DNA from: Octopus vulgaris | Taxonomy: Eukaryota | Direction: 5' to 3' | DNA length: 64,000 nt | Assembly (NCBI GenBank): GCA_951406725.2 | Contig: OX597830.1 | Location: 11,222,001 to 11,286,000, forward strand | In this document: positions 13,075 through 42,626 of the stretch, one piece after another | Layout: each line of letters opens with the position of its first letter | Numbering within the stretch: position 1 is the first letter of the stretch | The notes under the pieces: model-generated | Seen by the model: only the letters and a program-made list of their open reading frames with translations | What the model was told of the DNA's origin: nothing | The model's database searches: none | Made by a program: the position numbers and the translations under genes

Positions 13075-14174
13075 GTCATCATTAATCCTTGTTCGACCGT
13101 GGTCGAGACAATGGAATTTACTATGTTACGCCAGACTTCACGGTCCATCATAGCATTACGGAGGTCCTGTTGCTGGATGCCTGTATCCCTGGAGATTACA
13201 TCATGGTAGGAGAGTGTGCGCCCTCTGGTATCGCGAGCAGATGGCTTCCGGGGAAGAAGAGTAGAAATTGCCTTGTTTGCAGCTCTACAACAATGTCCAG
13301 CAAACTGGACTCTCCTACCTTTCACAAGAGATGACACAGGTGGTAATTTCCCATATATTTGCATTTTGGTTGGATGGCGCTTCCACGAGAGATTTTGAGC
13401 TCTCATAAGGAGGCGAGTGTAGGTTCCATCCAACCGCCGCTCAAGCTTCTTTTATAACGTCCAGGTTTCTGAGCCATATAGTAGAATTGGTTCGACTGTG
13501 GCTTTGAATATTTCAAGTTTGAAGTCTCTACATAGATTTGATGACCAGATCTTATGCATGTCATTACAGGCTGACCAGGCCATACCCTTTCTAGTTAGAA
13601 AGTCTTTTCCAGATGATGATATGTATGACCCAAGATATTTATAATCAGAAACCATGTTTAAAGGCGCACTGTTGAGAGTATGGATGATGCAATCACTGTT
13701 GGACAGGCACTTGTTTATGTATTCAGTTTTGGCCTCATTGAGGTAAAGACCTACACAATTTGAGGCTTGTTCAAGAGATTGTAAAAGAGACTGGACATTG
13801 GAGAGAGAATCACTGATAAGAGCGATGTCGTCAGCAAAGTCAGTGTCTGTCAAGTACTCAGCTGGGTGTCTGGAACTTCTTCTTGGTTTTATTTCAAAGC
13901 CCTTGCCAGAGATGGTATCAACTGACATACGTAGCACATAATCAACAACAATGATGAAAAGAAATGGGGCGAGTGTGTCTCCCTGCAGTATTCCGGCTTT
14001 GATTGAGAAAGATGATGGTTCTCCATTAGGGGTTAAGATGGTTGAAGACGTATCTGTGTAGAGGACCTTGATGGCAGAAATAATTTTGTCTGGTATCCCA
14101 TAGAGCTTAAGGATTTCAAACATCTTGTACCTATCTACAGAATCGAACGCTTTAGAAAAGTCTACAAATACCAT
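13075..14174 (-). mobile_element. 5'-truncated RTE-like LINE with well-preserved RT (240-aa ORF 13452-14174)
   Basis: FVDFSKAFDSV, GILQGDTLAPFLF, DFADDIAL, YKYLGS motifs; C-terminal part continues at 13032-13433. Confidence 0.92.
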
Positions 14175-14577
14175 GTAGTAGTAGTAGTAGTAGTAATAAT
14201 AAAATATATTTCAGGGATACAATATCAAAGACATAAGTGGAAACTTCGTTAATATATTTATCAAATATTTCATTTTAAAAAATTTTCTCATTAATAGATC
14301 TTTCTGTCTTTCAATATAAAACATAAACAATTACCAAACAATTAACGAGTTGAATTTAGATAGATCCATGCACTTGCTTGTTTCACTCTACTTTCACTTT
14401 GCTTCATAATACTGACACATAAAATTTGGTCTTTCAGTCATTTGATTTGTTTGTGCTTTTTTTTAAGAGACAAGAAGAAAACTATTAAATAGTGAGAGAA
14501 TTTAAAGAATGGTAATATTCAATAAGAGAACTATTTCACTTTCACCTTTGATACTTGTATTCCTGCAATGCTCTTAT

Positions 14578-24989: not shown

Positions 24990-27471
24990 AGGAAGTACTT
25001 ACAAACCTAGACCAGTGCCTTAATGTACTTCTGACCTTCTGATGGGTGACTTCAACTTCCCCAAAATTCGATGGCCTGACAGTGTCATAAAGAGGGCAAT
25101 CAGGAAGAATCTCAAGTAGATCTCATGGAAATGATGTTCATGGAGCAGACCATACTTTCCCCCAACTAAAAATAAGAACATCCCGGATATCTGCCTTACA
25201 AACAATATGGACCTTATCCACAACATAAACATATCACCGTCTACCCATCTAGACCTTAACATGATAGAACTGTCAATATATGGTCCAAAACTAATTAAAG
25301 AATCGTACAACAACTGTTGGGTCCCAAGCGCTGGCCAACCTGAACTTCTACAAGACTGGCTGGAAGTCCAAACAAAGAGATACTCCAGCAAAACTGGCTT
25401 AAAAGTCTGTCCATGCAAAATACTGACATGAAATTCAATGAATTCGTGTCAATAGTGCAAACCATATCCATTAAGTTTGTCTCAGAGAAGAAGGCCACCA
25501 CATATGAGAATATTATTCCCTGAGATAGAAGAATCCTAAAGAGACAGAGGATAAAGATCTCAAATCGCTTAAATAAGGAGCTTAATGACAGCAAAACGCC
25601 CTACCTCAAAATAGCACTCTTAGAGAGACTGAGAATAAAATCAGACTCTCCCATGAAAAAGAAAGGGTAAACAGAGAAGCCAGGGTGAAGGAAAATATAA
25701 AAAGAAACCCTAAGGTTTCTACAAGTTCATAAAAGAGCCTGCCTCAGTGTGATATGGGATAGGGCCACTGTTTGATGAAAAGGGCTCACTGGCTGCAGAC
25801 CCAAGAGGATAAGTGTAGTACTCAAAAAACAATTCCAAAGTGTTTTCACCTCCCCACTAGAAAACATGAAAATAAGCAGTTCTGATGAGTTCTTCGACAC
25901 CTCTAACCTACAAGAGAAAAAGGCAACCATCAATTACATTGACATTACAAGAGAGGATGTATTGTCGGCCGTTGTTGAGATAAACCCAAACTCTGCAACA
26001 GGCCCAGATGGACTCCCAGCAATTCTGTTAAAAACATGCAAGAAAGCTCTTGCAAAACCACTGCAAATGCTTTTCCAGAATTCCTTTGAGTGCGGTACAT
26101 TTCCTCAAACATTAAAAGAAGGAATAATCTGCCCTGTCCACAAAGGAGCAAGCAGAGCTATAAACTACAGGCCTATCTCTCTGACCTCACATGTCAGCAA
26201 GATCATGGAACACATTGTCAGAAAAAGACTGACCATGTTCCTAGAGGAAAATTACTCGCTTACAGACACGCAACATAGTTTCTGTTCTAACACAGCTGCT
26301 ACAGTACTTCGATTGGATACTAAAACAACAGCTCAACCATTCAAATGTGGCTGTGATATATCTCAATTTTGCTAAGGCCTTCGATAAAGTCGGTCATGTG
26401 ATGATATGTCACAAATTGCATGATCTTGGTATCACTGGTAGACTGGGAGAGTGGCTACACGATTCCCTGTTTGTGGTTGCTCTCTCGCACATGCCCTCAG
26501 CCATAGAGTCAACCGCGTTCACCAGCTACACCGATGATACAAAAGTATTGCAGGCAGTCAAGGATCCTACTAACAGAATGACCTGAATGCAATATATAAA
26601 TGGGCTGATGAGAATAATATTCAGTTCAATGGCTCAAAATTTCAAGTACTCCACTATCAGCCCACAGACAAACTACAGCTGAAGTACACTGGACCAACAG
26701 GCAACGTAATCCCAGAGTTAGAGTCGGTACGTGACCTGGGAATCCACATTAGCAATGACGAAACTTTCTATGTGCACATTGCTCAGATGGCAACACTATG
26801 CAGGCGAGTGGCAGGTTGGATCCTTAGATCCTTCAGGACCAGGAATAGAGACACAATGCTTCTGCTATGGAGAACCTTTGTCTTCTGTCGTCTGAGGACT
26901 GCTGCTCCCAACTGTGGTCCCCACAGAGTGTAAAACTAATTGCAGAACTAGAAGTGATTCAATGCCACTACACAAAGAAGATAGTCTCAGTAAAACACAT
27001 GGACTACTGGGAGAGATTGAAGGAGCTGGGACTCTATTCCCTGGAGAAGAGACACGAGAGATATGCCATACATATGGAAAATAATGGAGGGTCTAGCTCC
27101 AAATTTTGGAATCGAAATCTACAACAATCCCTGAACTGGATGGCACTGCACAGTACCAAAGGTCCCTTCCTCTCCATCGAGGATATGAACCCAATTTTGC
27201 AATAGCTTGGGATTCAAGGGATCACTACTTTTTAATGCCCTACCACAGAATATCAGGGTTCTACAAGGTTTAGACATGGAAGTCTTCAAAAAACGCCTAG
27301 ACAGTTTTTTATCTGCAATACCAGATGAACCCACATCATGGCTGGAGGCACAAAAAAGAGCAGCAACATCCAACTCACTTCTTCATCAGAAGCAATACTG
27401 GGAAAATCCCCAGATGCAGTAAAGGCAGTGCACCAGCATGGCCCCAGCCTCTGGTTGAAACCCATAAAAGA
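24990..27471 (+). mobile_element. Degenerate CR1/L2-group LINE (end of APE, RT, 3' tail)
   Basis: MGDFNFP, GPDGLPAILLK, NYRPISLTSHVSKIME, IYLNFAKAFDKV, YTDDTK, LKELGLYSLEKR fragments with frameshifts and stops. Confidence 0.9.
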
Positions 27472-38580: not shown

Positions 38581-38742
38581 ATTGTGGCGCATATCAGTTA
38601 GTTACAACTTCAGGTCATTTCCACTTTCAAACTATTTATGATATTTATTATGACTGTGTATGGGTTTTGGTATCTAAACCAAGGCAAAATTTCTTCGGGC
38701 AAATTTACTTCAGTTTGTTTGTAAATGCTTCACTTTCCAAAG
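38581..38742 (+). CDS. CUB-LDLa gene exon 7 (CUB2 N-half: NCGAYQLVTTSGHFHFQTIYDIYYDCVWVLVSKP..QIYFSLF)
   Basis: TTCTTTTGCAG acceptor, AAG|GTAAGT donor, phase 1/1; CG...SG.F....DCVW.L CUB signature. Confidence 0.9.
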
Positions 38743-39055
38743 GTAAGTAAAATAAAACGACCAGCTAACCATTATCAGAGAGCTGTTTCTTATTTTCACA
38801 TTATTTGTAGTTTTATTATTTGTAATTAAAATAGGAGATTGCAGTTGATGGGGGGGGGCATACTGGGGCACCATCTTGAAAGGTTTTTACTTGTACAAAT
38901 CAACTCCAGGATTTATTTGTTTTAAAGCCTAGTATTTATTTTATTGGTCTCTTTGCTGAACCACTAAGTTATAGGGACATAAACACACCAACACCAATTG
39001 CTCTTTAGTGGGTTGGGACGCACTCTTACACATTTCAATAAGTTGAGATTAAACT

Positions 39056-39646
39056 TGTAGCGGTATCTGATATCCTCACTGTTCGAGAGACGCAACAGGA
39101 ATGATCTCGTTTGAGATTACAGCCATCTTTGGCTGGGTTGTTTCCTGTTGTATCCACTGATCTGATTGGTTGACATGTGACGCAGTTCGTCTCTACTTAT
39201 TTTGCGCCACTGTCCAAAGCCAATCAATCACGGCCTTTGGTTAAGGTCTCGTGACACCCTTTTTCCTAGGCTGTCGTGGCTGAAGCAGGAGCATGGCTGG
39301 TCATCTGTCGCTGGAACTGGAACATGTTGAGTAGCTCTGTGGTCAGTGACTAGACCTCAAAAGGTCTGGAGTCGAAAGACCAAGTATAATGAGAGCAATC
39401 CCTTATATACAGGAGAGGTGACTCAACAGAGCCTGGGAAAAAGGGTGTCACGAGACCGTAACCAAAGGGCGTGATTGGTTGGCTTTGGACAGTGACATGA
39501 AATAAGTAGAGATGAACTGCGCCACATGTCAACCAATCAGATCAGTGGACACAACAGGAAACAACCCAGCCAAAGATGGCTGTAATCTCAAACGAGATCA
39601 TTCCTGCCGTGTCTCTCAAGCAGTGAGGATATCAGATACTGCTACA
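39056..39646. mobile_element. Foldback element/MITE with ~215-bp TIRs (TGTAG...CTACA)
   Basis: 39056-39272 is the reverse complement of 39429-39646 with scattered transitions. Confidence 0.9.
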
Positions 39647-40680
39647 GACCCATACAGAGATGAAAAGAAAATATCATTGAAGAATAGGAGGTATCAGGGG
39701 AGTGCACATGAAGGTAATGTTCATGAAGAATGTGGAACTGAGAAGGGGTGGATGTGTGTGCACGTGTGTGTATGTATGTGCGTATAAGAGTACATACAAA
39801 AGTGAGGGACGTGCGAAAGGAAAGGCGGTATCAGTCACCAGCTAAAATATCTCTGATGGGTCAGAGTGAGATAGAGGTAAAAGATGTCAATAGATTGATA
39901 TAAAGTGGGCTGTGTGCATTGATGTGCAGTAAATTTCTATTGGTTCAAACTTTCAAGAGAATATTTAGTAGCTAAATGAATATCAAATTCATGAACGTGA
40001 CCATCATTTAGTGGGATATAATCCAAAAAACTGGCTGCCGAACAAACTATAACCAAGAATATTGCGAATGAGACATTGATGACGATGCTCTGTGGCACAT
40101 TTCAATAAATGTGATCTTGCAAATATAAGGAGAAACGTTTCTTCCTCGCTTCTCTTGTGTCTTTCCTCAGTGGCAAAAATTAGTTACGTCTTTTACTTAA
40201 TTTTGTTCCATCTTTTTCTTACCATCATTTCTTTTTCTTTTGCTTATAATTGCTACCTTTTCTCTCTTCCACCAATCTCTACATCATTTCACTTTTATGA
40301 CAATTTTCTATTCTTCATTCTTTCATTTTGCAACCTTTCTTTCATCTTTCTTATATTGTCTTCTAGGTCAGACATCTTCACACTTTATTGCCATCATCCT
40401 TATTCTCTTCTTTACCACTTATTCTCCACTTATTCTTATTCTTCACTCCTTTCTTCATCTTTTCTTTCTCATATTTTCTCTTACTGCATCATTTCGTCTA
40501 CTAGTCACTTTCCTTTCATTTTCTGGAGAAAGCCTTGCCTGAAATGTCCCAGTTCTCTTCAGATTTATGTTGATTCACTTGGAGTTTCATTTTGTAAAAT
40601 ATTAATTTACTTCACTGAAAATTAGATATATATATTTACGAAGTCGGGACAGACATCTGCAGCTAGCAGGCTTTTGCTAC

Positions 40681-40727
40681 TCTGGACCGATGAAGGACAA
40701 TGATCCTGAAACATGCGTGTCTCTAGA
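40681..40727 (+). ncRNA. Type I hammerhead ribozyme-like motif inside a long hairpin
   Basis: TCTGGA-CCGATGA-AGGA[CAATGA]TCCT-GAAA-CA[TGCG]TGTC-TCTAGA; all three stems pair; GUC triplet at 40719-40721; core has U4C. Confidence 0.7.
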
Positions 40728-41082
40728 TGCAAGCCTGGCTGCTGGGGGTATTTGTCTCCCCTTCGTAAATATATAAGGACACAGGAAAAAAAATGTGTCG
40801 AAGCCATCAGGAGGCGTCGATGCTTCCTAGGGCTAAACAGTGGTGGTGTAATCCCCTACTGTCACGTTAAATTGACAGTATACAACTATTATATCGCCCC
40901 ACCGCCGTACATATCTCTATGAGATATTTAGAAATTTAATAATTTCTAATTTACTTTGAAGTAAACTCTGAAAGAAGAGAAGCGGAAGTAAAAAATAAGT
41001 ATTACTGATAGTCATTATGTGTAACTAAATTCCAAATATTTTGTTTCGGCTAACCAAATATGTTGTTTTTTTATATCTTCAG

Positions 41083-41247
41083 GCAGTCATGTGGACATTC
41101 ACTGTGGAAATACATCTGAAGGGCAGAAATTGGACCTTTTAAAAAATTCTAAATATTACTATTACACTAATTTATCTGCTGCTTACATTCGACTGCAAGG
41201 TTTGGTTCGCGACCAAGACAGATTAAATATATTATTCATGGTCCAAA
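41083..41247 (+). CDS. CUB-LDLa gene exon 8 (CUB2 C-half: GSHVDIHCGNTSEGQKL..AYIRLQGLVRDQDRLNILFMVQ)
   Basis: TCTTCAG acceptor, GTATGT donor, phase 1/1, open frame. Confidence 0.87.
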
Positions 41248-41279
41248 GTATGTAACAATTTGTTTCTACTGTATACATA

Positions 41280-41659
41280 CACTACCGTCAGAAATTAATT
41301 AGCACCCTTGATTTGCTCTTCACTCAAGGTATGTGCTGTCACCTAGTGGCCATATCTCGAACTATTGCTTTGTTGCGAGTTCACTGTTGCGCAGAACGAT
41401 GACGTAACTTTGTTTGCAGAGCAGTTTGAGAGTCTACAGCCTTATGATGTTGACATAGCAGTGCAACAACAACTTGGAGTGCGGATGCAGACAAATCTTC
41501 CTTTGTTTAATAGATATAGGTAGCGCCTCGCAAGGACCGAAATCACACCATACTAAGTTTTCTCATCGCGTAAGACGTTTTGAACAGCTCATAGGTTAAT
41601 TGATTTAACCTATTTAATGTAGAAATTTGAGAAGTGCTAATTAATTTCTGACGCAAGTG
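41280..41659. mobile_element. 380-bp MITE, TA TSD (Tc1/mariner-type)
   Basis: TIR CACTACCGTCAGAAATTAATTAGCAC / GTGCTAATTAATTTCTGACGCAAGTG; near-identical copy at 60745-61124. Confidence 0.92.
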
Positions 41660-41740
41660 TATATACATACACACATATATACATACACACACATATATAT
41701 ATACACACATATATATATATACACACATGTGCACGTGCAT

Positions 41741-41771
<31 letters not shown>

Positions 41772-41955
41772 TAATGTGTACTTCTGTGCATGTGTTTTTA
41801 CCAAAAAGTTTTTAAAAAGGAGCGCAGACCATTTCAAAATACAAAAAAATATGTATTCATGCATATTTTCTATACTAATAAATTCAAATTACTGTCTATG
41901 TGAACTCATCAATAACCTATCAAAAAAATTGAACCTCTCTCCAACAATATCAAAT

Positions 41956-42356
41956 CATCATCATCATCATCGTTTAACGTCCGCTTTCCATGCTAGCATG
42001 GGTTGGACGGTTCGACCGGGGGTCTGGGAAGCCAGAAGGCTACACCAGGCTCCAGTCTTATCTGGCAGTGTTTCTACAGCTGGATGCCCTTCCTAACGCC
42101 AACCACTCCGTGAGTGTAGTGGGTGCTTTTTACGTGCCACCTGCACAGGTGCCAGACGAGGCTGGCAGACGGCCACGCTCGGATGGTGTTTTTTATGTGC
42201 GACCGACACGGAAGCCAGACGAGGCGGAGCTGGCATCGGCCACGAGTCGGATAGTGCTTTTTACGCCACGAGTCGGATAGTGCTTTTTACGTACCACCAG
42301 ACCAGGGATCCTGGCTGCTTCAATTCGATTTCGATTTCGCTTGCCCCAACATGTCC
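41956..42356 (-). mobile_element. RTE 3'-end repeat (family C) with 49-bp flanking duplication
   Basis: (CAT)n start; flanks 41907-41955 = 42393-42441. Confidence 0.9.
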
Positions 42357-42626
42357 CATCAATAACCTATCAATAACCTATCAAAATAACCCCATCAATA
42401 ACCTATCAAAAAAATTGAACCTCTCTCCAACAATATCAAATAAGTTTTGATTATTAGAAGAGGTTTAAATTGTTGGAGGTGACCTTCGTACACCACTACA
42501 AAGATCACCCCCCCCCCCCAACAATTTAAACCTCCTTTAATGCAAGCAGGAATAAAGTTAAGGAATGTCACAACCCATTCATACTTACAATCCCCTCAAC
42601 AATATCTTCCATTTCAAACTCTTTAA

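Follow-up and report, generated by a model that had tools for sequence, protein, structure and literature searches.

An intronic hammerhead in Octopus vulgaris is probably a truncated retrozyme copy from a family whose putative snRNA-type start site receives a LINE

A type I hammerhead motif lies on the sense strand of an intron in the 64,000-nucleotide stretch of Octopus vulgaris DNA analysed here (the window), which raises the question of whether a host gene has adopted a ribozyme or a mobile element has left a copy behind. We favour, with a probability of about 0.7, the reading that this is a truncated and promoter-less copy of a Penelope-mobilised retrozyme, the intact units of which would be transcribed from a U1/U2-type promoter, self-cleave as dimers and receive a LINE at their start site.

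Using tblastn we placed 12 exons of the host gene on the + strand, with the element between exons at 38581..38742 and 41083..41247, with GT-AG borders read from the sequence and an intron of 38743-41082. The host exon was 96-100% identical to Octopus proteins, and the gene encodes an LDLa-domain membrane protein in which Pfam matched LDLa only and no CUB, so that the label 'CUB2' given to the downstream exon in the initial annotation is not supported. The same annotation had placed the hammerhead in the sense orientation ~360 nt before the acceptor of that exon, and the distance measured was 362 nt. Other repeats were also observed in the window. Directly after the downstream host exon there is a MITE-like sequence (41274-41665) with a 32-nt terminal inverted repeat, 91% complementary and 328 nt apart, which had no match among the fetched loci; reverse-transcriptase frame fragments lie in other introns at 13452-14210 (-) and 25779-26375 (+); and a 64-nt direct repeat (41892-41955 / 42378-42441) surrounds a ~390-nt repeat that recurs at other loci.

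The hammerhead occupies 40675..40731 (+), with cleavage predicted after C40721. Its outer stem is TGC/GCA with a TAC bulge opposite a T, followed by a 6-bp stem I (40681-86/40722-27), the core CCGATGA (40687-93), stem II with a 6-nt loop (40694-707), GAAA (40708-11) and a self-complementary stem III, ACATGCGTGT (40711-20), all on the + strand. These parts and the GUC site are in correct order and sit where they had first been annotated, and in type I order they match C3-U4-G5-A6-N7-G8-A9, G12-A13-A14, A15.1-U16.1 and H17 with one deviation, U4C. We take the bulge and loop II to resemble the tertiary contact of the Schistosoma hammerhead. The motif lies within a rod at 40629..40775 (+), closed as previously noted by a perfect 15-bp stem with arms at 40629 and 40761. 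Downstream (+) are a GACACA/TGTGTC hairpin (40778..40799) that is kept across the family, a TACTGTCA/TGACAGTA hairpin (40857..40880), shortly past which many copies and inverted pieces stop (query 287-295), and two terminal hairpins (40911..40950), which form the main 3' end of genomic copies and the first of which shows compensatory change in 4/17 sequences. Four such hairpins had been listed initially; three are present as quoted, while one arm of the fourth was misquoted, ATTAGAAATT being absent and TTTAGAAATT lying at 40927.

Folding of 40620-40785, a check proposed in the initial annotation, gave -64.9 kcal/mol and a z-score of -6.13, with 0/200 shuffles as good, and the rod is real by this measure; for 40600-41000 the z-score was -8.6. 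Rfam returned no match in the window at gathering score and no hammerhead at E<=10 over 39500-42500, which is uninformative because relatives with a canonical core were likewise missed.

A genome search with the window element returned 2992 candidates, of which 40 were scored; these were dispersed, and the others were 88-95% identical to the window copy, whose unit spans 40609..40953 (+). The element had been described as single-copy, and this holds inside the window and fails genome-wide. Exact matches to a 30-nt core pattern numbered 201 for the C4 version and 21 for the U4 version, so that the family has at least 222 copies, a lower bound, and reversed-pattern controls gave 0. U4C is thus the family state, which rules out its origin as decay of the window copy, and the 21 U4 cores are consistent with CpG decay. 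The CTGATGA form looked for as a consensus exists as this minority, CCGATGA being the majority. Likewise, the base of stem II is U.U in most copies and A-U in the subfamily of the window copy, so both features that had been raised as caveats, U4C and the A-U closure, are family or subfamily traits and not signs of decay.

At tandem loci the unit is about 355-365 nt, with cores 364 nt apart at one locus and a unit of 357 nt and 40% GC at another (L031); most copies have a single hammerhead, and the flanking units within one locus are 98-99% alike. The family is therefore non-coding, multi-copy and tandem, with a unit within 150-450 bp and GC below 50%. Contigs with part of the unit were also listed in 20 entries from 7 studies and four organisms; no run recorded as RNA was among them, which speaks neither for nor against expression. 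Of the best 29 copies outside the window, a sample that favours full length, 26/29 end at the same 3' hairpin (query 340-358), 19/29 carry the promoter motif ATCAGTG described below, and an inverted 5' piece and a partial tandem were each seen in 13/29. Inverted pieces and partial tandems are insertion forms of Penelope-like elements (PLEs; PMC8557442), and together with the fixed 3' ends the partial tandems and inverted 5'-truncated pieces mark the family as a likely non-autonomous Penelope-like derivative. Taken as sequence evidence, this supports assignment of the element to the metazoan non-LTR retrozymes, and the initial suggestion of a retrozyme-like monomer gains from the dispersed family, the ~355-365 nt tandem unit, the compensatory changes and the Penelope-like insertions.

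The window copy is flanked by a 10-bp target-site duplication, TAATTTACTT, at 40603..40612 and 40947..40956 (+), the left copy overlapping the element end by microhomology. It is 5'-truncated directly 3' of where the promoter motif would lie, and the position of the motif in intact tandem units (-58; 40597..40603, +) is occupied here by host sequence from which the motif is absent. No LINE lies inside the copy. Several other copies (L001, L006, L018, L020, L021, L211) are 5'-truncated inside a small hairpin that holds the promoter motif, and it is possible that truncation within this hairpin reflects a reverse-transcription stop that strips the promoter. Co-option of the intronic ribozyme, the second suggestion of the initial annotation, would mean a domesticated, HH9/HH10-like ribozyme that cuts the pre-mRNA of the host gene and changes its splicing or its yield of circRNA. 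The sense orientation 362 nt 5' of an acceptor would suit such a role, as would membership of a subfamily with an A-U pair and not U.U closing stem II, but the copy is one of at least 222, is 94% identical to the family majority as other copies are, keeps an intact 10-bp duplication, has no second hammerhead beside it within the window and as a monomer favours a decoy fold by about 6 kcal/mol. We regard domestication as very improbable. Most likely this copy rides in the intron as a passenger, and it is itself probably ordinary.

We compared 20 hammerheads picked as distinct examples from the window family and related families. Stem I was paired in 114/120 cells (shuffles: mean 82, max 93), and stem III was fully self-complementary in 20/20 with lengths of 6, 8 and 10 nt. 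In a separate test stem II paired in 100% of cells, and 0/500 shuffles reached the score of the structure. These shuffle controls ignore relatedness and are inflated by kinship among the hammerheads. The stem I and stem III counts were taken from a parsed script and not from the alignments, because row L051 of alignment A3 is misaligned over its first 60 columns and alignment A1 misaligns stem I/III in its last 8 rows. Stem II also shows G-C/A-U swaps among aligned copies. The covariation sought in the initial annotation is therefore present across families: at the level of sequence all three helices are kept by compensatory change, stem III as a palindrome and not as a stable hairpin.

The initial annotation had counted a preferred fold that avoids the three-way junction as evidence against the ribozyme, and such a fold was seen. 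The minimum-energy monomer fold (-14.6 versus -8.7 kcal/mol) lacks the junction and pairs the core with stem III, the alignment consensus also gives this decoy, and the junction probability in the monomer, computed without tertiary contacts, was 6e-6. Stem III has -12.5 kcal/mol as a duplex and +1.7 kcal/mol as a hairpin. The weak junction of a lone monomer and the stable stem III duplex fit the dimer mechanism described for hammerheads with such a stem III (PMC4209133, PMC7229834), and the palindrome suggests that the octopus hammerhead would likewise cleave as a dimer.

A less probable reading is that the family hammerhead is catalytically dead and spread from read-through RNA as a plain structured, non-autonomous Penelope derivative. 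U4C combined with U.U closing stem II, the decoy fold and the single hammerhead of most copies are all compatible with this, but stems and palindromes kept by compensatory change across families argue against it, as does the occurrence of U4C and U10.1-U11.1 in functional natural hammerheads, as described in PMC3088659 and PMC7229834. U4C is weaker in vitro, yet sufficient for viroid infectivity (PMC3088659), and among Xenopus retrozyme dimers 8/9 failed to cleave (10.64898/2026.07.22.740005). Sister families of the octopus element carry a canonical hammerhead core. The same promoter motif was also noted in at least four additional families of hammerhead retrozymes (L081, L083-L086, L089, L092, L056, L057, L047-L063), several with U3 in place of C3 and most with one core deviation; single deviations of this kind could possibly represent tuned-down ribozymes.

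Octopus U1 and U2 loci carry ATCAGT(G/C) at -56 to -61 in 39/39 cases. These loci are copies within arrays that represent about four promoter types, not independent cases, and three further loci were dropped (two with a LINE upstream, one retrocopy). The motif was found in 0/7 promoter-bearing U6 genes, picked by eye from 20, with a background of about 1.5%. Intact retrozyme units have ATCAGTG 58 nt before an ATC (window equivalent 40655) that is the LINE insertion point, and the spacing of this proximal element to the ATC is the same as its spacing to +1 in U1/U2. We take the motif to be a PSE, a label assigned from its position and from established knowledge. Transcription of intact ~360-nt units from a U1/U2-type promoter is likely on these grounds, and the ATC, which with the 17 nt duplicated by the LINE in other copies corresponds to 40655..40671 (+), would be the start, used by Pol II with SNAPc. 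LINE leaders derived from the target begin at this ATC, and LINEs inserted in U2 carry a 14-nt retrozyme leader, which also points to it as the start site. A U6-type Pol III promoter is disfavoured by the 0/7 U6 loci; the units have a TA-rich tract near -30, given which Pol III transcription is possible. As the left arm of the rod, up to 40654, lies upstream of the putative +1, formation of the whole rod would require RNA that is a multimer, a circle or a read-through product.

Intact RT and GIY-YIG frames are plentiful in the genome, and a palindromic hammerhead lies downstream at 7/30 GIY-YIG loci. No homology of the unit to an autonomous PLE or pLTR was found in these 30 loci and 3 longer regions of 6136 candidates, and the Penelope partner of the retrozyme is one that we infer. 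We also observed a young PLE family (L237-L239; L182, L184, L186, L187, L190, L195, L201) with an intact 781-aa RT + GIY-YIG frame, which is overlapped by an upstream ~480-aa frame, and a sister family with a UUGAUAA-core hammerhead downstream.

Four retrozyme copies adjoined a common frame with a CCHC knuckle, and the junctions revealed a single site, with a duplication of 15-17 nt, at which an ORF1-only element and the 3' end of a LINE were joined. The full-length LINE is ~5.5 kb, with an ORF1 containing a CCHC knuckle, an ORF2 of APE-RT-zf-RVT and target duplications; its nearest solved relative is L1 ORF2p, and by its sequence we class it as L1/Tx1-type. The ORF1-only element (L031-L034; 295 candidates) is ~1.66 kb, encodes about 460 aa with a CCHC knuckle, is a 27-32% relative of the LINE and is targeted more loosely than the full LINE; we presume it to resemble half-L1 elements. 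We examined 60 3' ends, 30 per type, as the best hits among 295 and 1211 candidates, 5/60 of which were seeds reached via the retrozyme and inflate the counts. A hammerhead followed in 37/60 by parsing and in 4 more by eye, a complete U2 from nt 1 in 3/60, a duplication and LINE or rearranged sequence in 5/60 and unrelated flanks in 10/60 (7 of them ORF1-only), with 1/60 truncated. Rfam found U2 only over 20 LINE loci. At the 5' ends the motif lay upstream in 20/30, with a spacing to the ATC of 57-60 nt in 18/20; 8/30 followed a duplication and another LINE, 1/30 lay in a motif-less copy (L211) and 1/30 was truncated. In 9/20 long regions the target duplication was clear and 14-21 nt long, one of these regions having a 5'-truncated LINE (L113), and in the remaining 11/20 the duplication was ambiguous or spurious or the 5' end was missing. 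Duplications of this size accompany entry at the ATC for the LINE and for its ORF1-only relative alike. The duplications span +1 to about +14-17, and the position of the nick is resolved no further than about -7 to +1, since the tail of the LINE has a few bases in common with the target. Past the LINE 3' end at L079 and L082, and also at L078, we observed a short structured sequence with a U-rich run that we take to be Sm-site-like; it is possibly another snRNA-promoter RNA, and Rfam gave no match on L079 and L047.

Some LINE-retrozyme composites seem to have been copied whole, so the junction counts overstate independent events. At L033 and L101 inverted arms include the LINE and end at retrozyme 3' sites, and this, with flanking units 98-99% alike per locus, is what would be expected if the whole link went back to a few old insertions that Penelope enzymes then multiplied in composite form, without ongoing targeting. 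We think this improbable, since the insertions share one site across at least four dissimilar hammerhead families and two U2 promoter types, tandem LINEs are split by a duplication, duplication lengths differ, the 5'-truncated LINE at L113 has a duplication of its own, and near-identical LINEs occur in different targets.

Insertions of the LINE lie at the ATC in four or more dissimilar hammerhead families, that of the window copy among them, and at nt 1 of U2 genes, where two promoter types are represented on different chromosomes. A comparison of full-length LINEs from U2 and from hammerhead family C gave 99.1% identity, and all 4 U2 5' junctions have, after the U2 duplication, a 14-nt leader with a 13/14 match to the start of family C. 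These four junctions may derive from one source copy, and the simplest reading of the sequences is that a source LINE was transcribed from a retrozyme ATC and then jumped into U2. A template-switch chimera was ruled out for the U2 cases by the untranscribed promoter DNA and array context that flank them.

The targets share ATC-N6-YGG and little else in sequence, yet have the motif at -57 to -60 in common. LINE subfamilies sort by target start: ATCG targets hold a group that is 97-99% identical, and ATCT targets, which include the family of the window copy, hold a group 88% identical to it, which favours a sequence preference over pure tethering. Aiming mainly by the snRNA transcription machinery (SNAPc or an open start) and not by endonuclease preference is a possibility that we rate lower, though not negligible. 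For it speak the shared motif among targets otherwise alike in little beyond ATC-N6-YGG, and one ORF1-only copy (L060, LINE-sense 133-170) in a (TG)n tract, whose 5' end consists of U1 nt 1-23 and then another short leader beginning with ATC, and which suggests use of a third gene with the same promoter. The sorting of subfamilies by target sequence counts against it, as do the absence, over the loci examined, of a LINE within any U1 gene and the L211 LINE in a motif-less copy, though the latter may be a truncated composite. We also raise, tentatively, the idea that this LINE lineage aims at snRNA-type promoter starts as such, with retrozymes that captured such a promoter as its main landing pads. 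If true, the LINE would gain from these pads a promoter, a 3' end cut by the ribozyme about 67 nt beyond its tail and a second means of spread through Penelope retrotransposition, and the stack of parasites would have four tiers: Penelope, retrozyme, LINE and ORF1-only element.

In the mechanism that we propose, with endonuclease preference as the main aiming, SNAPc and Pol II would start at the ATC of intact units. Two hammerheads of a multimer would pair via the palindromic stem III, leave the decoy fold and cut, and dimer cuts would yield monomers and then circles, with a lone monomer staying locked. A Penelope RT/GIY-YIG enzyme would copy the retrozyme RNA from one of the two 3' hairpins, leaving partial tandems and inverted pieces. 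The LINE would nick a few bases from +1, most likely guided by an endonuclease preference for an ATC-N6-YGG-like start and aided by target-derived RNA ends, and would take over the upstream promoter, keeping the first ~14 nt of the target as a leader and leaving a complete U2 or hammerhead unit behind; only +1 insertions would be transcribed onward. In several families the junctions of the LINE point to where transcription would start and to the kind of promoter used, which makes it directly testable how animal retrozymes are transcribed and moved. Known sequence-specific LINEs of snRNA genes break their target, whereas landing at +1 and moving between U2 genes and ribozyme elements would be a new mode of targeting, relevant to transposon ecology and to site-directed insertion.

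The closest known systems to the unit are the metazoan non-LTR retrozymes, in particular axolotl HHR_Amex2/Rtz353 and the 350-390-nt repeats of Mytilus (PMC7229834; 10.64898/2026.07.22.740005). As described there, these share a type I hammerhead in a 150-450-bp tandem unit with GC of about 40%, a highly self-paired predicted circle (z -8.4 in octopus), a palindromic helix III, a U.U helix II base (axolotl, PMC7229834), a TSD > 4 bp and PLEs alongside. Unlike them, the octopus family has U4C as its family state and is found mainly as dispersed partial tandems, and its units have a LINE parasite and a likely snRNA-type promoter, neither of which appears in the consulted parts of the metazoan retrozyme papers. 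Linear and circular RNAs have been demonstrated for those retrozymes, whereas in octopus they are predicted, and we found no octopus retrozyme in the papers searched. Newt satellite 2 (Coats et al. 1994, as cited in PMC2220036) sets a precedent: it is a hammerhead repeat with an internal snRNA-type Pol II promoter, like the one proposed for the octopus units. In the amphibian this promoter was established by experiment, whereas in octopus it is deduced from motif position and LINE leaders in several mollusc families.

The LINE resembles Keno, a U2-specific member of the Tx1 clade (PMC4494074, PMC4640811, PMC6136364), in carrying APE-RT-zf-RVT and inserting in U2. However, Keno enters about 37 nt into U2 and destroys it, whereas the octopus LINE enters at nt 1, leaves a whole U2 downstream and has hammerhead retrozymes as its main target; by its insertion site we do not count it as Keno. 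In an RT tree the octopus clade and metagenome elements bordered by U2 from nt 36 came out as sisters, with an SH-aLRT of 86 in what is a quick tree with no bootstrap and no named reference. Most of the 80 metagenome loci are 24-32% relatives, with several U2/U1-flanked Keno-like elements and, by a strict scan, no hammerhead beside them. Among Keno-like LINEs in metagenome contigs (L240, L251-L254, L280, L243, L278) we noted elements with U2 from nt 36 at their flank and two next to U1 pieces. In the papers searched we found no report of a LINE inserting in hammerhead elements or at U2 +1, though such elements may be catalogued in Repbase or Dfam. Tx1L in Tx1D and Tx1-Mar in Mariner-N4_AMi (PMC4494074) are, like the octopus LINE, Tx1-type LINEs that target non-autonomous elements; their targets are DNA transposons, whereas the octopus target is an RNA-based ribozyme element entered at its likely promoter start.

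The window copy itself shares with amniote HH9 and HH10 a type I hammerhead in sense orientation within an intron. HH9 and HH10 are few-copy and ultraconserved, whereas the window copy belongs to a high-copy repeat family and has a target-site duplication.
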